Source: a virus (lineage: Duplodnaviria > Heunggongvirae > Uroviricota > Caudoviricetes). Taken from it: a stretch of 34,750 bases of DNA. A program made the translations under genes and the position numbers. Where the stretch lies: IMG/VR virus record IMGVR_UViG_2875703104_000001; one strand, written 5' to 3'. Under the pieces are notes generated by a model. That model saw only the letters and a program-made list of their open reading frames with translations. It was not told where the DNA came from and searched no databases. Each line of letters begins with the position of its first letter. Position 1 is the first letter of the stretch. Positions 3,096 through 33,769 of this stretch are shown piece by piece.

Positions 3096-5543
3096 TTAAC
3101 CGTCATGCATCATGCTGGCACGAGCGCGCGCACGTTTATCCCGCTCGTATTTTTCGAGCGCATCCTGTAACTGGCGGTCAAGCTGTATCCCCGGCGCAGT
3201 ACCACCCGTCAGGCTGATGTGATATTCGTTTTTACTCTGGTCCACATAAGAGCGGCCAGCCGGTGCCGTGACCGGCTGATAAGCCTGATAGCCTGCATAA
3301 GAGCTGGTCGCCGGAATATAACCACCGGTGCCATACGTGGCGGCATGAGTTCTGGCGGCGGTCTGGTCAAGTGTGTCTGACTCTTTGTTGATGACCCCGA
3401 GCTTTTCCAGTACCCAGTCAATACCGCTGCGCAGTTTGTTGAACGCATTAAGCGGCAGCATTAGCGCGTCAGCCAGTGCCTGCCCGAACATGACGCCCGT
3501 GTCACGGCAACGATTCAGGGTGTCCTGGGTGGCTTTAACCGGGGCAATCAGGTTTTTAAACCACTGCCACGCGGCCTGTAATTTTTCGCCCAGCCAGTCA
3601 AACACCGGTTTCAGTGGCGTGAACAGCTCCCCCACCGGCGCAAATGCCGCTTTCAGCCCTTCAACCACACCGCCAAAGAATGCGCTGACAGGCTCCCAGT
3701 ATTTACGGATAAGCAACGCCCCGGCGACAATAGCGGCCACCACAGCCACAACCGGCCAGCTAATCGCCCCGATGGCGGTCATAACAGCACTGCCAACCGT
3801 CGTGAAGATTGCCCCCATTGCGCCTGCTGCCGCGATGATGGCATTAATGCCGGTGATAACCGGCCAGGCTACAAGACCAATTGCACCGATGATGCCAGTA
3901 AGCGCCAGCGCGCCACCGGCAATGAGGCCAATGGTTGACGCCAGTGATTTGTTTTTCTGTATCCAGCCATCGAGTTTTAACACATACTTTGTGGCCGTCT
4001 GCGTGAGCTTACGCAGCGAGCCTTCCTGCTGGTCAAACAGGTCAGTCCCCACCGCCTCATAAGCGGACTGAAACTCTTTAAAGTCACCGCCGAGATTGTC
4101 CTGCATGATATTTACCAGCTCGGCGGTCTTCCCGTCTGAGGCTTTAAACGCAGCGGTCAGTTTGTCCAGCTTTCCAGTTGAGGCGGCAGTCATCAGCACG
4201 GCGGCGGCTGAGCTGGCCTCCTCCCCGAAAATAGTTTTCATGTATTCAGCCTGCTGGGCAGTACCGAGCCGGTTTTTCTCAAAACTGGCCTGCATTTCTT
4301 TCAGAATGGTAAATACTGGTCGAGTATTCCCTTTACTGTCTGAGGTTTTCACGCCAAGCTCTTTGAGTGCATCCCATGCTTTTCCCGTTGGTGCCTGCAG
4401 GCGACTTAACACGGCACGGCTTCCCGTCCCCGCCATTGAGCCTGTAATTTTTGCATCATGCAGCGCCCCGACCATTGCGGCGGTTTCTTCAATGCTGACA
4501 CCAGCATTTTTTGCCACAGGTGCGGCATAGGTCAGCGCATCGCTCATGCCATCAAAATCGGCGGCGGTTTTGTTCATCGTCATGGAGAGAACATCCCCGA
4601 TATGAGCGACCTTATCGTTTGAAAGCTGAAAGGCGGATTTCATCCCCATCAGCAGGGCGGCGTTTTCTTCCATCGTGCGACGGTTCGCCAGCGCCATATT
4701 CAGCGTGACCGGCGTTGCCGCCTGAATGGCATCAACATCCCCACCGGCTTTCGCAATAATAATCTGCGCACCGGCTGCATCATCTGCCGAGGCTGCGGTA
4801 TTGTCGCCGAGCTGGCGCGCCTGCTTGCGTAGTGCAGCCATTTCGGCGGAGTCTTTTGCCACACCGAGCACAGCCTGCAATTCTGAGTTTTTCTGCGCAA
4901 ACTCATAACCGGGCATCAGCAACTTAACTCCGGCCATCGTTCCCGCAGCAGCAATCCCCACACCGGCAGCGCCCACTGAGGCCATATTTCCGGCCAGTTC
5001 CTTTCCGGCCTGATAACGCTGTTTTACTGCGTTAAGTTTTGCCTGTTGTGCACTGACACGCGCCAGCGCGTCACGCTGACGGTTAAGCTGTGCGGTGGTT
5101 TCACTGATACGGTTTTTCAGTCCCTGCTCATCATGTGCAAGATTGCGGGTATTAATTCCCACAGCGGCCAGTTCCCGCTGCTGGCGTTTAATGGAATCTG
5201 TCAGGCGGTTATATTTCGCCTGTAAGTCCTCCGCCGCACGCTTTGCGGATTCCAGCACTTTCGCCTGAGCACGGGTCGGACGTTCAGTGTTTTTAAACTG
5301 TGTGGCAAGGGCTTCGGCTTCCTGCCGTGCCTTTTCAAGTGCATGACCAGTCACGGCAAGCTGTGCGCTGGTCTTGCGAAATCCCTCAATACGGGATGCG
5401 TGACCGTTCAGCTCGCGCAGTGATTTTTGTGTTTCCCGGATATCCCCCGACAGCGACTTACTCGCTGTGCGGATGGATTTAAACGGGCGGGATGCCTGGT
5501 CAACAGCCCTGAGCAATACCTGTAATTTTACATTGTTACTCAT
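3096..5543 (-). CDS. T: Tail tape measure protein gpT (815 aa)
   Basis: Long Ala/Gly-rich coiled-coil protein with a hydrophobic central segment, typical of tape measure proteins; length equals P2 gpT as recalled. Confidence 0.9.
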   Translation of the reverse strand: MSNNVKLQVLLRAVDQASRPFKSIRTASKSLSGDIRETQKSLRELNGHASRIEGFRKTSAQLAVTGHALEKARQEAEALATQFKNTERPTRAQAKVLESAKRAAEDLQAKYNRLTDSIKRQQRELAAVGINTRNLAHDEQGLKNRISETTAQLNRQRDALARVSAQQAKLNAVKQRYQAGKELAGNMASVGAAGVGIAAAGTMAGVKLLMPGYEFAQKNSELQAVLGVAKDSAEMAALRKQARQLGDNTAASADDAAGAQIIIAKAGGDVDAIQAATPVTLNMALANRRTMEENAALLMGMKSAFQLSNDKVAHIGDVLSMTMNKTAADFDGMSDALTYAAPVAKNAGVSIEETAAMVGALHDAKITGSMAGTGSRAVLSRLQAPTGKAWDALKELGVKTSDSKGNTRPVFTILKEMQASFEKNRLGTAQQAEYMKTIFGEEASSAAAVLMTAASTGKLDKLTAAFKASDGKTAELVNIMQDNLGGDFKEFQSAYEAVGTDLFDQQEGSLRKLTQTATKYVLKLDGWIQKNKSLASTIGLIAGGALALTGIIGAIGLVAWPVITGINAIIAAAGAMGAIFTTVGSAVMTAIGAISWPVVAVVAAIVAGALLIRKYWEPVSAFFGGVVEGLKAAFAPVGELFTPLKPVFDWLGEKLQAAWQWFKNLIAPVKATQDTLNRCRDTGVMFGQALADALMLPLNAFNKLRSGIDWVLEKLGVINKESDTLDQTAARTHAATYGTGGYIPATSSYAGYQAYQPVTAPAGRSYVDQSKNEYHISLTGGTAPGIQLDRQLQDALEKYERDKRARARASMMHDG

Positions 5544-23243: not shown

Positions 23244-23416
23244 TGTCAGGAGTCCTGAATAGTGATTAGAGGAGTCACATGTCGGCATCAGTTTCCCGAC
23301 GATGCGCATCCTCCGCCATCAGTCCCGGATGGCTTATCACTGACACAACAGCACCTTAGCGAATCGCGGGGCGCGACTCAGTAGCCTTGCCGTGTATTCA
23401 TCACGGCGAGGTATTC
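23244..23416. promoter_or_regulatory. Divergent late promoter region between O and P (expected Ogr-dependent promoters)
   Basis: Position only: intergenic region between the divergently transcribed O-N-M-L and P-Q operons. I could not confirm a clean activator-binding motif by eye. Confidence 0.4.
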
Positions 23417-25189
23417 ATGACCATCACCACAGACACCACTCTTTTACACGACCCGCGTCGTCAGGCGGCGCTGCTGTACTGGCAGGGGTTTTCCGTGCCG
23501 CAGATTGCCGCCATGTTGCAGATGAAACGCCCGACGGTGCAGAGCTGGAAACAGCGCGACGGCTGGGACAGCGTTGCCCCCATCAGCCGTGTCGAAATGA
23601 GTCTGGAAGCGCGGCTGACCCAGCTCATCATCAAACCGCAGAAAACCGGCGGTGACTTCAAGGAAATTGACCTGCTGGGACGCCAGATTGAACGACTGGC
23701 ACGGGTAAACCGTTACAGTCAGACCGGCAACGAGGCAGACCTTAATCCGAACGTCGCTAACCGCAACAAAGGCGGGCGTCGCAAACCGAAAAAGAATTTT
23801 TTCAGTGACGAGGCCATCGAAAAGCTGGAGCAGATTTTCTTTGAGCAGTCTTTCGACTATCAGTTGCACTGGTATCGCGCCGGGCTTGAGCACCGCATCC
23901 GCGATATCCTGAAATCCCGCCAGATTGGCGCGACGTTTTATTTTTCCCGCGAGGCGCTGCTGCGCGCCCTGAAAACCGGTCATAACCAGATTTTTCTGTC
24001 GGCCAGTAAAACGCAGGCGTATGTGTTCCGTGAATACATCATCGCCTTTGCCCGGCTGGTTGACGTTGACCTGACCGGTGACCCGATTGTCCTGGGCAAT
24101 AACGGCGCAAAACTGATTTTTCTCGGCACCAACTCCAACACCGCACAGAGCCATAACGGCGACCTGTACGTCGATGAGATTTTCTGGATCCCGAATTTTC
24201 AGGTACTGCGTAAGGTGGCATCAGGTATGGCCTCACAGAGTCACCTGCGCTCGACCTATTTCTCCACCCCGTCCACGCTGGCGCACGACGCCTACCCGTT
24301 CTGGTCGGGTGAACTGTTCAACCGGGGACGCGCCAGCGCCGCCGAACGCGTGGAAATCGACGTCAGTCATAACGCCCTTGCCGGTGGGCTTCTCTGTGCG
24401 GACGGCCAGTGGCGGCAGATTGTCACCATTGAGGACGCCCTGAAAGGTGGCTGCACGCTGTTCGACATTGAGCAGCTCAAACGTGAAAACAGCGCCGACG
24501 ATTTTAAAAACCTGTTCATGTGTGAATTTGTTGACGACAAGGCGTCGGTGTTCCCGTTCGAGGAGCTGCAACGCTGCATGGTCGACACGCTGGAAGAATG
24601 GGAAGACTATGCGCCGTTTGCCGCCAATCCGTTCGGCTCCCGCCCGGTATGGATTGGTTACGACCCGTCACACCGTGGCGACAGCGCCGGATGCGTGGTG
24701 CTGGCACCGCCGGTGGTGGCCGGTGGCAAATTCAGAATACTTGAGCGTCACCAGTGGAAAGGCATGGACTTTGCCACCCAGGCGGAATCCATCCGCAAAC
24801 TCACCGAAAAATATAACGTTGAATACATCGGGATTGATGCCACCGGCCTCGGTGTCGGCGTGTTCCAGCTCGTGCGCTCGTTCTATCCCGCCGCGCGCGA
24901 TATCCGCTACACGCCGGAAATGAAAACCGCAATGGTGCTCAAGGCAAAAGACGTTATCCGCCGTGGCTGTCTGGAATATGACGTCAGCGCCACCGACATC
25001 ACCAGCTCGTTTATGGCTATCCGCAAGACCATGACCAGCAGCGGACGCAGCGCCACCTATGAGGCCAGCCGCAGCGAGGAAGCCAGCCACGCCGACCTCG
25101 CCTGGGCGACCATGCACGCCCTGTTAAATGAGCCACTCACCGCCGGTATCAGCACCCCGCTGACATCCACCATTCTGGAGTTTTACTGA
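23417..25189 (+). CDS. P: Terminase ATPase (large) subunit gpP (590 aa)
   Basis: MTITTDTTLLHDPRRQAALLYWQGFSVPQIAAMLQMKRPTVQSW matches P2 gpP as recalled; the ORF-track start at 23387 adds 10 codons. Confidence 0.9.
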   Translation: MTITTDTTLLHDPRRQAALLYWQGFSVPQIAAMLQMKRPTVQSWKQRDGWDSVAPISRVEMSLEARLTQLIIKPQKTGGDFKEIDLLGRQIERLARVNRYSQTGNEADLNPNVANRNKGGRRKPKKNFFSDEAIEKLEQIFFEQSFDYQLHWYRAGLEHRIRDILKSRQIGATFYFSREALLRALKTGHNQIFLSASKTQAYVFREYIIAFARLVDVDLTGDPIVLGNNGAKLIFLGTNSNTAQSHNGDLYVDEIFWIPNFQVLRKVASGMASQSHLRSTYFSTPSTLAHDAYPFWSGELFNRGRASAAERVEIDVSHNALAGGLLCADGQWRQIVTIEDALKGGCTLFDIEQLKRENSADDFKNLFMCEFVDDKASVFPFEELQRCMVDTLEEWEDYAPFAANPFGSRPVWIGYDPSHRGDSAGCVVLAPPVVAGGKFRILERHQWKGMDFATQAESIRKLTEKYNVEYIGIDATGLGVGVFQLVRSFYPAARDIRYTPEMKTAMVLKAKDVIRRGCLEYDVSATDITSSFMAIRKTMTSSGRSATYEASRSEEASHADLAWATMHALLNEPLTAGISTPLTSTILEFY

Positions 25190-26223
25190 TGAGCAAGAAA
25201 AAAGGGAAAACACCGCGACCAGCGGCAAAAACAATGACCGCCAGCGCCCCGAAAATGGAGGCATTCACCTTTGGTGAGCCGGTGCCGGTACTCGACCGCC
25301 GTGACATTCTGGATTACGTCGAGTGCATCAGTAACGGCAGATGGTATGAGCCACCGGTCAGCTTTACCGGTCTGGCAAAAAGCCTGCGTGCTGCCGTACA
25401 TCACAGCTCGCCAATTTACGTCAAACGCAATATTCTGGCCTCGACATTTATCCCGCACCCGTGGCTTTCCCAGCAGGATTTCAGCCGTTTTGTGCTGGAT
25501 TTTCTGGTGTTCGGTAATGCGTTTCTGGAAAAGCGTTACAGCACCACCGGTAAGGTCATCAGACTGGAAACCTCACCGGCCAAATATACCCGTCGTGGCG
25601 TGGAGGAGGATGTTTACTGGTGGGTGCCGTCCTTCAACGAGCCGACAGCCTTCGCGCCCGGCTCCGTGTTTCACCTGCTGGAGCCGGATATTAATCAGGA
25701 GCTGTACGGCCTGCCGGAATATCTCAGCGCCCTTAACTCTGCCTGGCTGAATGAATCGGCCACGCTGTTCCGCCGCAAGTATTACGAAAACGGCGCACAT
25801 GCCGGATACATCATGTACGTCACCGATGCCGTGCAGGATCGCAACGATATCGAAATGCTTCGCGAAAACATGGTTAAGTCGAAAGGCCGCAATAACTTTA
25901 AAAATCTGTTTCTCTATGCCCCTCAGGGGAAAGCCGACGGCATTAAAATTATCCCCCTCAGTGAAGTGGCAACGAAGGACGATTTTTTTAATATCAAAAA
26001 ATCCAGCGCCGCTGACCTGCTGGACGCGCACCGCATCCCCTTTCAGTTGATGGGCGGCAAGCCGGAGAACGTCGGGTCGCTGGGTGATATTGAGAAAGTG
26101 GCAAAGGTCTTTGTCCGCAATGAGCTTATCCCGTTACAGGACAGGATTCGGGAAATAAACGGCTGGCTCGGTCAGGAGGTCATCCGCTTTAAAAACTACT
26201 CACTGGACACTGACAACGGCTGA
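25189..26223 (+). CDS. Q: Portal protein gpQ (344 aa)
   Basis: Length and synteny match P2 gpQ; start overlaps the P stop. Confidence 0.9.
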   Translation: MSKKKGKTPRPAAKTMTASAPKMEAFTFGEPVPVLDRRDILDYVECISNGRWYEPPVSFTGLAKSLRAAVHHSSPIYVKRNILASTFIPHPWLSQQDFSRFVLDFLVFGNAFLEKRYSTTGKVIRLETSPAKYTRRGVEEDVYWWVPSFNEPTAFAPGSVFHLLEPDINQELYGLPEYLSALNSAWLNESATLFRRKYYENGAHAGYIMYVTDAVQDRNDIEMLRENMVKSKGRNNFKNLFLYAPQGKADGIKIIPLSEVATKDDFFNIKKSSAADLLDAHRIPFQLMGGKPENVGSLGDIEKVAKVFVRNELIPLQDRIREINGWLGQEVIRFKNYSLDTDNG

Positions 26224-26228
26224 ACATC

Positions 26229-26250
26229 GCCGCCTGCGGGCGGCTTTTTT
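26229..26250 (+). terminator. Rho-independent terminator after Q (GCCGCC-tgcg-GGCGGC followed by TTTTTT)
   Basis: Read directly; 6 nt after the Q stop codon. Confidence 0.75.
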
Positions 26251-26392
26251 ACACCCCGCCATCACGCCCTCACACGCTCATCACCGCACAAAACATCCCG
26301 CAGACACACCAACGCCCCGGCGAACAATCTAAACGCCGTCACGACGCGCTCAGACGCTGAAAAAATAAAATCAGCACCACCGCCAGCGCGCA

Positions 26393-26411
26393 GTGCTTTC
26401 CCCGCCTCGCC
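26393..26411. other. cos: cos site: 19-nt cohesive-end sequence of P2 type
   Basis: GTGCTTTCCCCGCCTCGCC is the reverse complement of the P2 cohesive end GGCGAGGCGGGGAAAGCAC as I recall it; located about 170 bp past Q, as in P2. Confidence 0.75.
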
Positions 26412-26531
26412 CGCCCGCTTCGTGGGACGATTTTAATGCAGTTGCCCGCATTAGCTGAATCCGCGCCAGAACAGACATTATGGATATGTCAATACGAACT
26501 TATTGACGTGCAAAATCATGCAATCAAGCGC

Positions 26532-26557
26532 AAAAAAAACCGCCTTCAAAGAGGCGG
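26532..26557 (-). terminator. Rho-independent terminator downstream of the kinase-HIRAN gene (minus strand)
   Basis: Plus strand AAAAAAAA-CCGCCT-tcaaag-AGGCGG; on the minus strand this is a hairpin followed by U8, about 20 nt after the stop at 26577. Confidence 0.7.
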
Positions 26558-26576
26558 TTTATGTTATCCCATTGGA

Positions 26577-28220
26577 TTAAGATCTACATTCAACTAAAAG
26601 GTACACTAATGGACGTTCTGGCGTCCCATTCTTCTTTGCAACAAAAGCAGATATTTTGTGTTTTGCTATTTTTTGCTTGAGTTTTTTACATAACACTTTG
26701 TTTATATAACCAAGTTTCCCGCTCTCATGAACAACAGCTATAGCATGTGGATCAACCGGGTTATCCTCTTCAGGAACAAGCTTGACCAAATCACCGACCA
26801 TTACTTTCGACAAATCAAGCCCTTCCTGATAACGAGTTCCTGCCACTTCAAAAAGAAGCTCACCTTCACTATTAAGAATTTCTGGATCTGGCACCAAACA
26901 AAAACCATCGCCAGGTGATTTTGCTCCTGTATATCCTAACAGCGCAAAATCAGAGCCTTCAAATGGATGGGGGAGCAAATGTTGAGCCAGATACTCAGCA
27001 AAGTCTTTTCTTTTCCGTGGTGGTAAACGCCGAACAAACGGGTCAAGCACGTTGTTCGTATGTTCTTCACTTTTCAGACTAAATGCGGGATGTCCTGCAA
27101 ACCCTTTCTCTTGGGCTTTAGCATAATCTTCTGACTGAAAATGGTATGTGAAGACGTAGTTATCCCCTTGCTGACGATCAATCTGACCAACAACATAACG
27201 AGTACCGCCTGTGGGTGGCTGCCATGTAAGAAGCAACCGAGTAGGCTCCATTATTCTGTTTATAGTACGCATATTTAGAATCAGTGATAACCTTAGGTAT
27301 CTACGCCTCAATAAACGAATCGTCCAATCCGCTCGTTCCCTAGTGAACGGCACATCGGAGCTAATTTCGCAAAGTGAATCTATCTTGTCGACCAGTTCCT
27401 GAAAATCAAATTCAAGTCTCCGGGCCAAGTACGCTTTTGACTGCTCATCAAGAGCCAAATCCTGTATAGAAGAAATATGACCTAATCGTTCATGCGTGTC
27501 TGCCCGATTCTTCCGCAAATGATGACAACCACGCTGTATGTATTCATCTACATTTTGATGGTTCCATCCTCTGATCCTCTCTACATACCTTTCATGCCCC
27601 AAACTAGTACCATTATCGAAATATGGTGCGAGATATCCCTTCACTTTAGGTGGCGTTATGCCTGGTGCAGATTCAGGTACAAAAACAAAACCCCAATTCT
27701 CTTGGTGTCTATCACTATTACCGATGAGCGCATCAAAAAGCAGCATATCGTAAAGCCATTGGATCCAGTCTGGAGAGATCAGGCCGCGGATACTAAAAGC
27801 CCTACAAATTAAGCGTAGATCAACAAGGTTATGGTGTCTTCCGGAAGAGTCATCAAAATCCGATATCAACACATGAAAAAAATCAGACGCATGAACAAAT
27901 AACTGGCTACTTTGATCGTAAAACCACTCAAGCAAAGCTCCATATTCGTATTCACCGTTCTCCATCATTCTTCGCGCTGGCAATGCTTTAGGAACAGGAA
28001 CGCCCATAACATCTCCAACTATATAAGCAACGGTTTCCATCCAGTACTGATCGGGATAAGCATCTCTTGAGAGTTTAAAAAGATAAGGCCATTCCGGTTT
28101 TATCCCCTCAGGAGCATCATTCGGTGACCAAAGCATTTTTTTATCCCTCGCTCCTCGAGGAAAAATGCCATGCTCATCATCTTTACGCCAACTAGTTACA
28201 TCTATTAAATTGATATCCAT
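26577..28220 (-). CDS. HipA-like Ser/Thr kinase domain protein with C-terminal HIRAN-like domain (547 aa); candidate defence or toxin effector
   Basis: LFDALIGNSDRHQENWGFVF fits the HipA-family catalytic loop (GNxDxHxxN) and LAPYFDNGTSLG the downstream HipA motif. C-terminus LFEVAGTRYQEG...LVPEEDNPVDPHAIAVVHESGKLGYINK fits the HIRAN signature. Gene is AT-rich and sits between cos and A. Confidence 0.65.
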   Translation of the reverse strand: MDINLIDVTSWRKDDEHGIFPRGARDKKMLWSPNDAPEGIKPEWPYLFKLSRDAYPDQYWMETVAYIVGDVMGVPVPKALPARRMMENGEYEYGALLEWFYDQSSQLFVHASDFFHVLISDFDDSSGRHHNLVDLRLICRAFSIRGLISPDWIQWLYDMLLFDALIGNSDRHQENWGFVFVPESAPGITPPKVKGYLAPYFDNGTSLGHERYVERIRGWNHQNVDEYIQRGCHHLRKNRADTHERLGHISSIQDLALDEQSKAYLARRLEFDFQELVDKIDSLCEISSDVPFTRERADWTIRLLRRRYLRLSLILNMRTINRIMEPTRLLLTWQPPTGGTRYVVGQIDRQQGDNYVFTYHFQSEDYAKAQEKGFAGHPAFSLKSEEHTNNVLDPFVRRLPPRKRKDFAEYLAQHLLPHPFEGSDFALLGYTGAKSPGDGFCLVPDPEILNSEGELLFEVAGTRYQEGLDLSKVMVGDLVKLVPEEDNPVDPHAIAVVHESGKLGYINKVLCKKLKQKIAKHKISAFVAKKNGTPERPLVYLLVECRS

Positions 28221-28229
28221 ATCTTACGG

Positions 28230-28781
28230 TTACCCAGCTAATGCACGGAAAGCAGCACTAACATAAGCTACCTGAAACTTTGCATCTCGAAGCGCATGAT
28301 GCGCATCAGTAACATTAATGGAAAAATTTGCCCTTACATCAATATTCTTAAGGCTTTTAGCTAGTTCAACGATGGTACGCACGTCTCGATCATTTCGAAA
28401 ACGCCATGGGATATTTTGCGCATGTTTACGGTAAACCGCTGCCAATATAGCGTTATCAAAGCTTGCCCCATTCCCCCAAACTTGTACGTCATCGTTACTA
28501 CGACTTCGTACAAATAGAGAAAATTCTTGTAAGGCTTCATGTAAGTCAACAGCAGACGGGTCATTAAAAACCGCCCTTGCAGAATCGCTTTGTATCATCC
28601 ACCACTGTAAAGTTTTTGGGTCTACAAAACTATTTTCCAATGCAGATGATAGGGTTATAACTCTATAAAACTCATCCCCACACTTGCCAGTCAGAGGCTC
28701 AAAGAACACAGCGCCGATTGAAATCAAAGGAGCATCCATTGACACACCTAATGTTTCTATATCGAGCATTAAATTATTCAT
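28230..28781 (-). CDS. DEDDh-family (DnaQ/RNase T-like) 3'-5' exonuclease (183 aa)
   Basis: Exo I motif LDIETLG (D-x-E), central FDNAIL aspartate and C-terminal AHHALRDA (H-x4-D). GGAGG ribosome-binding site 4 nt before the ATG; 9-nt gap to the kinase gene suggests one operon. Confidence 0.7.
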   Translation of the reverse strand: MNNLMLDIETLGVSMDAPLISIGAVFFEPLTGKCGDEFYRVITLSSALENSFVDPKTLQWWMIQSDSARAVFNDPSAVDLHEALQEFSLFVRSRSNDDVQVWGNGASFDNAILAAVYRKHAQNIPWRFRNDRDVRTIVELAKSLKNIDVRANFSINVTDAHHALRDAKFQVAYVSAAFRALAG

Positions 28782-28921
28782 TTAACCTCCACCCCAGACA
28801 TAGCTCAGGGAAACGTAACCTATTGAAATAACGAATCAAGTATTTGTCACATTCTATACTAAAACATTCGAATTCCAAAACTTCAGCTTTTGCAACCCCT
28901 TACAAGTCAATTGATCCATAA

Positions 28922-28941
28922 TACTGTATACATACACAGTA
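28922..28941. promoter_or_regulatory. LexA (SOS) box TACTGTATACATACACAGTA
   Basis: Matches the E. coli LexA consensus TACTG(TA)5CAGTA with a perfect CTGT-N8-ACAG core. It lies 19 bp past the A stop and about 140 bp upstream of the exonuclease start. Confidence 0.7.
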
Positions 28942-28959
28942 CTACATTTGAAAAACAAA

Positions 28960-31236
28960 TCAAGGGAAATCATTAAAACCCGGCCAATCACAACAAGGCG
29001 GATAAACAAATTTTTTCATGTCATAAATAACTTCTGCCCCACGAGCCAGCGCCTCAAGCTCCCATCTCTGAGGCCTGATACCGTTCTGAGCAAGGTCAAC
29101 GCGGATACGGGTGATTTGCAATCGTTCAGACCGGGTCAGTCTGGCCGATGGTGCAATTTCATGCGGTTTTAACGGGCTTCCGTTTCTTTGCTGACGGTTT
29201 GGTCTTCTCAGGCCGTATTTTAATGCACCTCTGAGCGCCCTCACGACCTCCGGGTCATTCCATTCGATAACACCGTCATCAACCAGATTAAGCACTGCTG
29301 CGGCGTGCTCAGAAGGTGTGGGAGCCAGTAACGAAGTATCACCACCGGTGAGCTTTCCACAGTTATTGACAGGACTCCGAGGCGCGGCGATGCCGCTTTT
29401 TAAAGTCAAAGGCTCAACGACCGGAACTTTCGGCACAATGCGCCAGTCCGTCGTTCTGGTGATATGAATATGACGCGCGCCGAGATGCGGCGCGTAAATG
29501 CCGACCACTCTCTCGACTTCTTCCTCGTACTCGTTAACGTCATCCGACGGACTACGGGCGACCCTGACAGTCTGACAATCGCGCGGGACATTTGCCCCGC
29601 CCTGCGCGCTGATATACAGCGCAAAATCGCCACTGTCTGCGGCAGCGCGTGCAGCCTCCACGCGTTCGTCAAACTCATCAGCAATACTGACGCCGCGAGG
29701 CAATTTACGTAGTTCACGGTAAGCCCCCATTGTCGGCAGTCCAACCGTTTTAAATTGCGGGATGCGCCACGTTGACGCCCATGCGGTAACAGCCGCGGCA
29801 GTATCTTTAAGCGGCTTACCGGTATCGTTATCGAGCTGACCATCCAGTGCATAGCCGTCGATATTTTTTGAAATGTATTTCGCGATATATCCCGCAGCAC
29901 CGCCCCGGTTAAGATGCTTTGCCTGAAAACGGTTTCGCGCGGCTCCTCTTTCGTCACCATCCTCTTTGAGCGCATAGCGACGCATGATTTCGATAATCTG
30001 GTTACGCTGGCGTGGATTACAAAAAAGCATCATATGCCAGTGCGGCGTTCCGTCGTGGTGTGGCTCGACGACACGCAAACCGTAGACCTGTAAATCATTA
30101 TCCTTGAATGCCGTACGCATCAGGCTCCAGATACGGCAGAGATAACGCTGCGCATCCTTTGGATTAAATGCCTCATCATTCCAGCCGTGATTAAGCTGGA
30201 CGGTTTTACTTTCGCCTTTTCCGACCTGACGTGTCGGATGATACTTTGACGGCGCGGTCATCGTGATAAACATCCCCACATCACCCTCTGCGGCGGCGTA
30301 ACGCTCAATTCCGGCGATGGTGTTCATCAGCTCCATCCGGCGAATTTCAGGATTAGAAATACTGCCCATCACCTTACTGATAAGGTCGATGCGCTCGCCG
30401 GTTTCCCTGTTTTCAAGGTCACACGATTTAAGAAATTCCAGATTTGCCTGGCGGCGCGCACGCACATCACGAATGGCATGTTTACTGGCATAAGGAGAAC
30501 GGTCTTTATTGACCTCCCCGACAGCAATCAGTAACGCCTCATGCCAGCGCATACGCTGGCCTTTAAGCTGATGAGTCCACCACTCATCGTTAAACAGACG
30601 GGCAATGGCAGAATATGCCTGCCTCGTGGTCATCTGTCCTTTACGGTATTTTTTCCAGTAGAGCGGGGAAATATTGAAAGCACGTGCAGCGCCAGCAACA
30701 TGACCATACAGGTGAGCCTGCGCCTCATCCGTAAACAGCGATTCTTTTTCGCCATGCGCATCCACCCAGGCATCGCAGAGTTCCTCATACATCATGAAAA
30801 GCTGCGATGAGATTCGGGCGGCAAACTTTTTCAGCTCCTTGTCATTCATCCCCGGCAGGCGCGCATACTGGTCGCGCTCTGCCAGAAACAGCAACGACGC
30901 GTCGGTGTTCATTTCATGGCGCTGATTCACGCGCTCAATGCGCGGCCATAAACGACGCTGAAAAGTGGATGTGAGGAAATAAAACCCGTGCACCGGGCTT
31001 TTATTGCGCCGGATGTAGTCATAGCGTGAAGTAAACAGCGAACGCAAAAAGTAAGGCAGGCGGTTAATCGTGGATAAAACACCTTGCACCTGACGCATCT
31101 CGTCACGTGTAAGGGGTCTTTCGCGCCCGACAGCCTCGCGTGGCGCGTTCCATGCATAAGCACCGGTAAACGCCTTACCGGTGCCTGCGGCAAATGCTGA
31201 CGGAGGGACAAAACGCCCGGAGGCTTTAACGGCCAT
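28960..31236 (-). CDS. A: Replication initiation protein gpA (rolling-circle HUH endonuclease), about 758 aa
   Basis: Contains the HUH motif (GTPHWHMMLF) and the P2 gpA-like N-terminus MAVKASGRFVPP. The ORF-track start at 31278 is 14 codons further upstream; start choice is uncertain. Confidence 0.88.
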   Translation of the reverse strand: MAVKASGRFVPPSAFAAGTGKAFTGAYAWNAPREAVGRERPLTRDEMRQVQGVLSTINRLPYFLRSLFTSRYDYIRRNKSPVHGFYFLTSTFQRRLWPRIERVNQRHEMNTDASLLFLAERDQYARLPGMNDKELKKFAARISSQLFMMYEELCDAWVDAHGEKESLFTDEAQAHLYGHVAGAARAFNISPLYWKKYRKGQMTTRQAYSAIARLFNDEWWTHQLKGQRMRWHEALLIAVGEVNKDRSPYASKHAIRDVRARRQANLEFLKSCDLENRETGERIDLISKVMGSISNPEIRRMELMNTIAGIERYAAAEGDVGMFITMTAPSKYHPTRQVGKGESKTVQLNHGWNDEAFNPKDAQRYLCRIWSLMRTAFKDNDLQVYGLRVVEPHHDGTPHWHMMLFCNPRQRNQIIEIMRRYALKEDGDERGAARNRFQAKHLNRGGAAGYIAKYISKNIDGYALDGQLDNDTGKPLKDTAAAVTAWASTWRIPQFKTVGLPTMGAYRELRKLPRGVSIADEFDERVEAARAAADSGDFALYISAQGGANVPRDCQTVRVARSPSDDVNEYEEEVERVVGIYAPHLGARHIHITRTTDWRIVPKVPVVEPLTLKSGIAAPRSPVNNCGKLTGGDTSLLAPTPSEHAAAVLNLVDDGVIEWNDPEVVRALRGALKYGLRRPNRQQRNGSPLKPHEIAPSARLTRSERLQITRIRVDLAQNGIRPQRWELEALARGAEVIYDMKKFVYPPCCDWPGFNDFP

Positions 31237-31501
31237 ATGAGCCAAAAGCCTCTGAACAACGCTTGCTGAGTTGCTCAACCTGCGCGTTTAAATCAGCAAA
31301 AGACTTTGCGCTTCCGGTCAGAATATCGTGATGCATCAGGCCGGAAACGAGCTGGCTTAATTTCGGGTAATAACCAACCACCGACAGCCATTCCTGACCG
31401 GCGTTTTTACCGCTTTCCGCTCTCTTTTTCTCGTGGAGAACAAACTGAAAGCTGTCACTGGTAACGACATAACGTTCGCCAATTTCAATACGAATACTCA
31501 T
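31226..31501 (-). CDS. Small early-operon protein, P2 orf83-like by position (91 aa)
   Basis: Position immediately upstream of A in the cox-B-A operon; no motif recognised. Confidence 0.6.
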   Translation of the reverse strand: MSIRIEIGERYVVTSDSFQFVLHEKKRAESGKNAGQEWLSVVGYYPKLSQLVSGLMHHDILTGSAKSFADLNAQVEQLSKRCSEAFGSYGR

Positions 31502-32818: not shown

Positions 32819-33006
32819 ACCCTCCGGCTTTTCAGAAAGGTCAGAGCCTTTTTTAACGGACTCTGTTTTTTGGTGCGGATAATGATTCCCTTACGCCCCT
32901 TACCGTGGGTGATGGTGAAGTCAATCGCCCTTGGGCTTTCGTTACGCAGTAACTGAGCAATACAACGCGGTTCACTCATAATCACAACCCCATCCACAAA
33001 AGCCAT
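32809..33006 (-). CDS. Small ORF between cox and B, P2 orf78 position (65 aa or shorter)
   Basis: Position only; overlaps the cox 3' end unless translation starts at the internal Met (MSEPRC). Confidence 0.4.
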   Translation of the reverse strand: MAFVDGVVIMSEPRCIAQLLRNESPRAIDFTITHGKGRKGIIIRTKKQSPLKKALTFLKSRRVWK

Positions 33007-33254
33007 GCATCACGCTGTTCAACTGGTCGGTTATAAAACGCCTCTCGTACAGCGCGATTAAACTCTGGAATGAAAACCCACTTCTCACCGACACGAGCGT
33101 TCGGCTTACTTGGATCACGAAGCTCAATAACTGGCAATTTATTCTCTTTTACCATCTTGACTACAGCCGTTTCTGGCTTACCAAGTAACTCTGCAAACTT
33201 AACCGTATGTACCGCATCAATCGGGTACTGAATCACATAGTCATTGACTTCCAT
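32982..33254 (-). CDS. cox: Cox: excisionase and repressor of the lysogenic promoter (90 aa)
   Basis: C-terminal ...GEKWVFIPEFNRAVREAFYNRPVEQRDAWLLWMGL resembles P2 Cox (...YWVYLPAWN...RDGWLMWLGL) as recalled; divergent from C. Confidence 0.8.
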   Translation of the reverse strand: MEVNDYVIQYPIDAVHTVKFAELLGKPETAVVKMVKENKLPVIELRDPSKPNARVGEKWVFIPEFNRAVREAFYNRPVEQRDAWLLWMGL

Positions 33255-33406: not shown

Positions 33407-33700
33407 ATGCAGACATTCGAAAAACTGAAAGCGATTAGGAAAGCAGAAGGCTTAACACAGGCGAAATTCAGCGAAATTAGCGGGATAGCTCTAGGAACAG
33501 TCAAAAATTACGAAAGTGGGCATAAAGACCCTGGTCTCAGCATCGTTATGCGAGTCACAAATACGCCTTTATTTAAAAAATATACGCTCTGGTTAATGAC
33601 TGGTGATACGTCACCACAAGCTGGTCAGATCGCGCCGGCTCTCGCACACATTGGGCAAAAACCAACAGAATCAGACCACTCCGAAAAACAGACTGGTTAA
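33407..33700 (+). CDS. C: Immunity repressor C (HTH, 97 aa)
   Basis: ...LWLMTGDTSPQAGQIAPALAHIGQKP resembles the P2 C repressor C-terminus (QIAPALAHFGQ) as recalled; helix-turn-helix-like region LTQAKFSEISGIALGTVKNYESG. Confidence 0.82.
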   Translation: MQTFEKLKAIRKAEGLTQAKFSEISGIALGTVKNYESGHKDPGLSIVMRVTNTPLFKKYTLWLMTGDTSPQAGQIAPALAHIGQKPTESDHSEKQTG

Positions 33701-33769
33701 CACTCTATAAACATTATATTTTCACCATTTGTTACCAAGATGGTGAATACAGCGTCAGAGGGCTTTCTT

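Follow-up and report, generated by a model that had tools for sequence, protein, structure and literature searches.

A high-scoring LexA operator in front of the exonuclease–hipL cargo of a P2-type prophage, possibly derived from the p95 operator of phage 186

Introduction

What does a LexA operator control in a prophage that lacks tum, the gene that stands directly behind such an operator in phage 186? The question is raised by a viral DNA of 34,750 nt (IMG/VR record IMGVR_UViG_2875703104_000001; the whole stretch is called the window here), in which a first-pass annotation, made from the letters alone, had noticed a palindrome between replication gene A and a pair of cargo genes for an exonuclease and a kinase. 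The palindrome was described as a near-consensus LexA box and as a possible ancestral SOS-regulated slot, equivalent to the place of tum in 186 and now driving different cargo. The tin/old region of P2, which extends from A to the cos/portal end, is reportedly a hotspot of variable cargo.

Results

The whole window is a prophage of the P2 type, its sequence running in reverse orientation. The terminase gene (23387–25189) and portal gene Q (25189–26223) lie on the plus strand, as do the integrase gene, which starts at 33740, and the gene for a 97-aa, HTH-only repressor C (33407–33700). Cox (32982–33254; Phage_Cox, PF10743) is encoded on the minus strand, and the immunity type is P2-type C/Cox. 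Replication gene A, encoding a rolling-circle endonuclease (28960–31278, minus strand; Pfam Phage_GPA, E = 1.2e-123), ends in a TGA stop codon at 28962–28960. At the DNA level, homology with P2 and with some 75 further P2-like phages ended at about 28975, roughly 13 nt short of this stop codon, and the box described below therefore lies outside the conserved P2 backbone. As in the P2 tin/old hotspot, the exonuclease gene and hipL are located between A (28960) and portal gene Q.

The first cargo gene (28230–28781, minus strand) encodes a 183-aa DEDD 3′-5′ exonuclease that is Rv2179c-like (PF16473, E = 6.8e-57; phrog_255). The second (26577–28220, minus strand) encodes a 547-aa HipL-type kinase with the Pfam domains HipA_C, Couple_hipA and HIRAN, that is, a HipA-like kinase core, a HipS-like domain and HIRAN, the HipL architecture described by Gerdes et al. 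(PMC8262856). Its two halves matched the PADLOC defence candidates PDC-M03A and PDC-M03B (candidate PDC-M03). A DEDD nuclease has also been noted beside HipA/HIRAN genes in Gram-positive genomic islands, where its function is unexplained (PMC11706625), and a defence role of such cargo is a published prediction (PMC8262856, PMC11706625). We regard the exonuclease–HipL pair as putative defence genes. Just past hipL, an intrinsic-terminator-like hairpin (26537–26560, minus strand; 9-bp stem followed by TTTTTT) likely marks the end of the operon. In the presumed cos region between hipL and Q (26224–26576), this hairpin converges with a second terminator-like hairpin on the plus strand (26229–26244).

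The prophage is identical to Escherichia phage 899 (PV533660). The region was 100% identical in phage 899 and in Yersinia phage GMG73, and 61 of 5,426 complete E. coli genomes carried it with no less than 99% identity. The exonuclease–hipL module is carried by two isolated phages as well as by these 61 genomes, many of which come from clinical sources (as read from the host_or_source entries, not counted). A distant-mode search of the E. coli genomes returned nothing beyond the same 61 near-identical copies, and for this reason they give no within-species footprint for the box.

Direct reading confirmed the palindrome TACTGTATACATACACAGTA at 28922–28941 (minus strand, TACTGTGTATGTATACAGTA). 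The CTGT-N8-ACAG core is exact, both TA/TA outer bases are present, and the only 2 mismatches in 20 positions to the consensus TACTGTATATATATACAGTA fall within the spacer. The site was scored with a matrix compiled from 23 LexA sites of E. coli; the consensus and nine of these sites agree with Table 4 of PMC3009722. The score was 25.1 bits, and a heterology-type index computed on our same 23-site set was 3.8. On the same matrix, recA (23.1 bits), sulA (23.4 bits) and the lexA boxes (19.7–20.3 bits) all scored lower, while experimentally proven sites spanned 12.4–27.6 bits, a range that includes the window's box. The best of 200 shuffles of the window reached 17.5 bits, and the next best real site in the window 15.6 bits; the CTGT-N8-ACAG pattern itself occurred twice, compared with 0.33 expected from shuffles. 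The 15.6-bit site (TCCTGTATATCCTAACAGCG, 26925–26944) is located inside the hipL coding sequence; as a LexA box it was rejected as probably due to chance, the equivalent position of the related contig L026 scoring 12.3 bits.

The box lies 18 nt past the gene A stop codon and 140 nt before the exonuclease ATG (28781), and no other inverted repeat of 10 nt or more occurs in the intergenic region. Four observations of the first-pass annotation were borne out in this way: the 20-mer with its core, its near-consensus character (for which a matrix score had been proposed as the check), its place between A and an exonuclease and kinase that follow on the same strand, and its being the only operator-like palindrome upstream of this pair. 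The motif is the same 20-bp motif as in the chromosomal E. coli SOS boxes of recA, sulA, umuDC and dinI, and its score is in their top range. Unlike those boxes, it occupies a prophage intergenic region, stands 140 nt from the start codon and has a second promoter in between. Judged by its sequence, the palindrome qualifies as a high-scoring E. coli-type LexA operator, and LexA would be expected to occupy it.

An identical 20-mer was found in 18 viral contigs, in several unrelated contexts; an exact match was absent from the papers covered by our literature search. In some unrelated phage contigs it stands 16–21 nt upstream of a gene for a Peptidase_S24 (UmuD-like) or phrog_2100 protein, which is the place expected for a working SOS box. 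In contigs L013 and L085, which represent two different phage contexts, a consensus-grade LexA box precedes an 85-aa ORF by 16 nt. The product is a conserved, uncharacterised protein (phrog_2100; MxxxDxxFQVVYRG...GGGYWLGRTY), and from the placement of the box its gene would be an uncharacterised SOS-controlled phage gene.

Two promoter-like elements lie between A and the exonuclease gene. The distal one is a candidate p95-like SOS promoter on the minus strand (28936–28963; cccTTGATTtgtttttcaaatgtagTACTGTgtatgtatacagta), composed of a −35 hexamer TTGATT (28963–28958) that overlaps the gene A stop codon, a 16-nt spacer, and a −10 hexamer TACTGT (28941–28936) that is the left arm of the box. It agrees with the consensus at 7 of 12 positions and falls under the threshold of the promoter scanner. 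Comparable layouts were seen in L026 (TTGAAT-16-TACTGT) and L034 (TTGCAA-18-TACTGT), and we infer from this arrangement that TTGATT-16-TACTGT may act as an SOS promoter. A search by eye placed no convincing −35/−10 pair around the boxes of L030 and L113. An alternative −10 on the right arm, TATTAT (28923–28918), was not preferred: L026 has TATTTC there, and the −35 is poor.

The proximal element, TTGGAA-16-TAGAAT (28851–28878, minus strand), was the only promoter-like match that the scan returned in the intergenic region. The box, whose centre is about 87 nt upstream of the predicted start, ends short of this element, which begins and ends 45–70 nt further downstream. Since this element is the better of the two, highly conserved and free of box overlap, the cargo is probably not fully LexA-dependent, and much or all of its expression could be LexA-independent.

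The 140-nt interval from the box to the exonuclease gene (28782–28921, minus strand) lacks tum, showed no significant RNA structure (fold z-score 0.57), and gave no terminator-like hit when its minus strand was scanned. As a search against Rfam likewise gave no match, a leader RNA, riboswitch or sRNA in this interval was rejected. We also rejected an SOS peptide encoded by a 21-codon ORF that begins 2 nt past the box (MDQLTCKGLQKLKFWNSNVLV), which lacks a Shine-Dalgarno sequence and has no conserved counterpart in L026. The leader proper (28782–28899), which includes the block TTGCAAAAGCTGAAGTTTTGGAATTCGAATGTTTTAGTATAGAATGT, is 85% identical to that of L026, as against 61–67% at the third codon positions of the cargo genes, a difference indicating that, apart from the LexA box, a promoter or leader element is also under constraint.

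Contig L030 contains two sequences that recall this region. A motif at 3893–3915, GGAATT..AATGTTAGTAT, resembles the leader block of the window. About 60 nt past the real A stop codon, at 3724–3747, the sequence GAT GGC TGG GAT TTC GAA TGT TAG encodes DGWDFEC followed by a stop, which resembles the C-termini of A in the window (DWPGFNDFP-stop) and in L113 (DWPEFYD-stop). This relic in L030 may have been left by a past recombination event inside the 3′ end of A. The likeness suggested that the window's proximal promoter block might itself be a scar of another phage's A 3′ end; this idea was dropped, because a blastn-short search against 71 distinct A 3′ ends gave no match.

A global alignment of the window with L026 (Serratia-type, L026/L112) served as a footprint. 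The box was identical at 18 of 20 positions, and all 12 arm bases were unchanged. By comparison, identity was 62% over the 21 nt from the stop codon to the box and 56% over the 22 nt past it; it was 70% over the last 50 nt of A and 83–84% in the cargo genes. At a per-site identity of about 63%, we calculated the chance of retaining 12 of 12 arm bases as about 0.004.

Relatives of the module were gathered by searching with the exonuclease and with the kinase domain. Five diverged types were found, all in P2-like phages: that of the window (100% exonuclease identity), L026/L112 from Serratia (89%), L113/L147/L148 (60%), L114/L149/L150 from Atlantibacter and others (54%) and L030 (45%). A LexA box of 19.6–29.3 bits was present between A and the exonuclease gene in 5/5 of these types, which are phylogenetically non-independent samples. 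The box sequences differ among the relatives: TACTGTATGTGTATACAGTA (26.1 bits), TACTGCATATAAAAACAGTG (19.6 bits), TACTGTATATAAACACAGTG (24.7 bits), TACTGTATATTTATACAGTA (29.3 bits), TACTGTATGGATATCCAGTG (23.4 bits) and TGCTGTATATAAAAACAGTC (22.2 bits). The literature search found no report of a box before every exonuclease–HipL/HipIN module of P2-like phages. Another 32 hipIN/hipL loci (L115–L146), from Proteobacteria, Planctomycetota and Spirochaetota, had no adjacent exonuclease homologue, no phage A or portal gene nearby and no box either, although several of these taxa use other LexA motifs that are invisible to the E. coli matrix. Compared with these 32 loci, the DEDD exonuclease partners the HipL/HipIN kinase only in the P2-like phage copies. 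Exonuclease homologues of 43–49% identity in other phage types had no upstream box. The window, L026, L113 and L114 have the fused kinase (HipL); most other loci have it split (HipI + HipN), as does L030, where the kinase and HipS-HIRAN are two genes, in a hipIN-like manner.

The layout recalls that of phage 186. In the 186 record (GenBank U32222), promoter p95 (TTCACA-18-TACTGT) is situated about 190 nt downstream of A, its −10 is the first hexamer of the LexA box, and tum follows directly behind the box. Past tum come a partial terminator, t95a, then orf97 and a final terminator, t95b; the p95 transcript partly passes t95a into orf97, which is described there as blocking infection by 186 when expressed from a plasmid. 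The 186 Tum protein combines an N-domain (phrog_1993, 8554, 698) with a DinI domain. For DuoHS, a P2-like prophage of E. coli HS, LexA control of tum has been demonstrated experimentally by means of lexA(Ind-) and tum-deletion mutants (PMC12055606).

Among the relatives with the exonuclease–hip module, a tum homologue was located directly behind the box in L113, L114 and L147–L150. Behind the box of L113 and L148 come GGAGG and a 60-aa ORF that matches the Tum N-domain (phrog_8554, E = 4e-17) and could be aligned by eye to 186 Tum (ERIDLIARLT...EIAL..IAE). In L114, L149 and L150 it is followed by a Tum N-domain ORF (phrog_1993, E = 2.9e-29) and then by a DinI-like ORF. The Shine-Dalgarno sequence lies about 20 nt or less behind the box in all five contigs, and the junction of ACGTGC with TACTGTAT is common to L114 and 186 p95. 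The DinI-like ORF of L114 (3047–3280) is broken by a TAG at 3209–3211, after which the frame resumes (EGDREKISSILQAVWEDD); it is either a pseudogene or part of a split Tum. No terminator-like site was found between tum and the exonuclease gene in L113 and L114, and from this absence the SOS promoter probably transcribes tum–exonuclease–hipL there, just as p95 transcribes tum–orf97. A terminator-like hairpin was seen just upstream of the box in L113.

In the window, by comparison, tblastn detected no Tum or DinI homologue anywhere, and alignment of the window and L026 with L113 and L148 showed no convincing homology from the box to the ribosome-binding site. On these two results a clean tum deletion scar was rejected. 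As the sequence holds no tum remnant, the loss of tum is deduced from synteny only. When immunity regions were typed after extending the contigs upstream, the tum-positive contigs (L148, L149 and L150) were of the 186 type, with CI/Apl/CII, in 3/3 cases, and the tum-less ones (window, L026 and L030) of the P2 type, with C/Cox, also in 3/3. Thus tum occurs only where its target exists and the box occurs in both immunity backgrounds, which is the strongest argument for a role of the box that is independent of tum. In the window, the only genes that it can serve are the exonuclease gene and hipL. No report of a box kept without tum in phages of P2 immunity was found in the literature.

The window's box shares with 186 p95 a position downstream of A near the cos end of the genome, on the same strand, a −10 (a candidate one in the window) that is the TACTGT arm of the box with a −35 located 16–18 nt upstream, and a transcript that in 186 can, and in the window would, run into a non-essential gene (orf97 in 186, exonuclease–hipL in the window). 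It differs in that the window has neither tum nor the CI/Apl/CII switch on which Tum acts, carrying C/Cox instead; the box is 18 nt past the A stop codon, as opposed to about 215 nt in 186; the flanking DNA has no detectable homology to 186; and the genes downstream, for a DEDD exonuclease and a HipL kinase, are unlike those of 186. By position, orientation and promoter layout, we read the window's box as derived from the p95 operator of 186. In the strict sense the window stands outside the p95–tum operon family, since it has neither tum nor the CI target.

We then considered the hotspot as a whole. We collected 80 loci at which the C-terminal half of A has a close homologue; from the stop codon of A, the portal gene was 0.7–3.9 kb away, and the cargo genes were unrelated. 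Among the 77 loci with usable downstream sequence, 7 had a box scoring 19 bits or more in the A-to-portal interval, one of them being the window's phage (6/76 of the others). Unlike the window, P2 itself and about 92% of the sampled P2-like loci have no box at the hotspot. Boxes of 19–27.5 bits were located before other hotspot cargo in L034 (5274), L040, L109 (6044), L068 (5401), L102 (5409) and L085 (6059). The genes behind them encode a SocA/Panacea protein and a membrane protein (L034, L040 and L109), an ABC-3C system with a 645-aa ATPase (L068), a C5-methyltransferase and an HNH protein (L102) and the 85-aa phrog_2100 protein (L085). All six loci lack tum. The literature search found no paper tying LexA to the P2 hotspot.

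The comparison with 186 that accompanied the first description of the box can now be qualified. Its equation of the box with the tum slot holds insofar as relatives with the same cargo do have tum behind the box. The idea that cargo replaced tum does not hold, for phages of the 186 type carry both, and only those with P2 immunity lack tum. Nor is the slot a general feature of the backbone, given the proportion of P2-like loci without a box.

Discussion

We consider it probable, at roughly 60%, that a remnant p95-like, LexA-repressed promoter (TTGATT-16-TACTGT) reads into the cargo, on top of a conserved proximal promoter. Both LexA binding and SOS induction are predicted here from the sequence. 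According to this proposal, tum would have been lost in a P2-immunity prophage, while the operator and a weak promoter stayed directly behind gene A and, with no intervening terminator, the SOS promoter came to point into the exonuclease–hipL operon. In an undamaged lysogen, LexA on the box would occlude the SOS promoter, and basal, LexA-independent expression of the cargo would come from the proximal TTGGAA-16-TAGAAT. DNA damage would activate RecA and cause LexA to cleave itself, opening the upstream promoter; transcripts would then start near 28929 and cross the 140-nt leader into exonuclease–hipL, so that expression of the exonuclease and HipL would rise after damage. The scheme presumes that LexA occupies the box, that the upstream promoter is active and that cargo transcript levels respond to it. 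Several observations count against it: the promoter is weak; a better and strongly conserved element outside the box lies nearer to the cargo; the box stands 140 nt from the start codon, as against 16–21 nt for the same 20-mer elsewhere; the window keeps no trace of tum; the five module types are related samples; and L030 and L113 have no convincing −35/−10 pair at the box.

Some of these observations would suit a vestigial operator, to which LexA may bind although the promoter died with tum, the cargo running from the proximal promoter only. The scanner passed over the upstream promoter, which matches 7 of 12 positions, but did report the proximal element, which is highly conserved; the box is unusually distant from the start codon; and tum is missing from the window. 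We nevertheless hold a vestigial operator to be unlikely. A useless 20-mer should decay, and yet the box has kept 18 of 20 bases and every arm base between flanks of 56–62% identity to L026 (p ~0.004). Moreover, a strong box has been kept without tum in three separate P2-immunity lineages, and boxes precede other hotspot cargo from which tum is absent. That the palindrome is unrelated to LexA, and arose by chance in AT-rich intergenic DNA, is effectively refuted by its score, 25.1 bits against a shuffle maximum of 17.5, and by its conservation in relatives.

The box might instead serve as a roadblock or insulator, with LexA damping read-through of the strong early lytic cox-B-A transcript into a kinase operon that could be toxic. 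Toxicity is typical of kinases of the HipA family (PMC8262856), and the stretch from A to the cargo has no terminator, whereas L113 has a terminator-like hairpin just upstream of its box. Against such a function, which finds no precedent in these data and strikes us as highly improbable, stands the fact that in relatives the box is plainly the promoter operator for tum. LexA is not known to act as an efficient block to elongation. As the site is palindromic, it could be asked whether it controls a plus-strand promoter, TTACAA-16-TACTGT (28900–28927), that would produce an SOS-induced RNA against the 3′ end of A, TTACAA (TTACAG in L026) lying 16 nt from the other arm. With agreement at no more than 6 of 12 consensus positions, this promoter would be weaker than the candidate on the minus strand; neither a conserved ORF on the plus strand nor an RNA family goes with it; and wherever the gene behind the box can be identified in relatives it shares the strand of A; antisense control is barely credible. 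Neither the roadblock nor the antisense explanation has positive support.

Returning to the remnant p95-like promoter as the preferred explanation, we put forward a wider proposal that we regard as tentative and somewhat doubtful: LexA control could be an integral, selected part of the exonuclease–HipL/HipIN module, providing SOS-licensed defence or abortive infection in prophages that are not themselves SOS-inducible, with a p95-derived promoter at the entrance of the hotspot that may serve several unrelated cargos. The HIRAN kinase would then be a toxin that senses DNA ends, with the exonuclease as its partner; LexA would hold the pair low and damage would boost it. The other cargos to which the promoter may have been put are Panacea-type toxin–antitoxin pairs, an ABC-3C system and a C5-methylase/HNH pair.

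If the box works as we propose, a non-inducible P2-type prophage would wire part of its accessory cargo to the SOS response of the host, and this would give a testable handle on when the exonuclease–HipL candidate defence module is switched on. It would also mean that a regulatory element of one phage lineage, 186 p95–tum, has outlived its own gene and been reused for the cargo of the hotspot.
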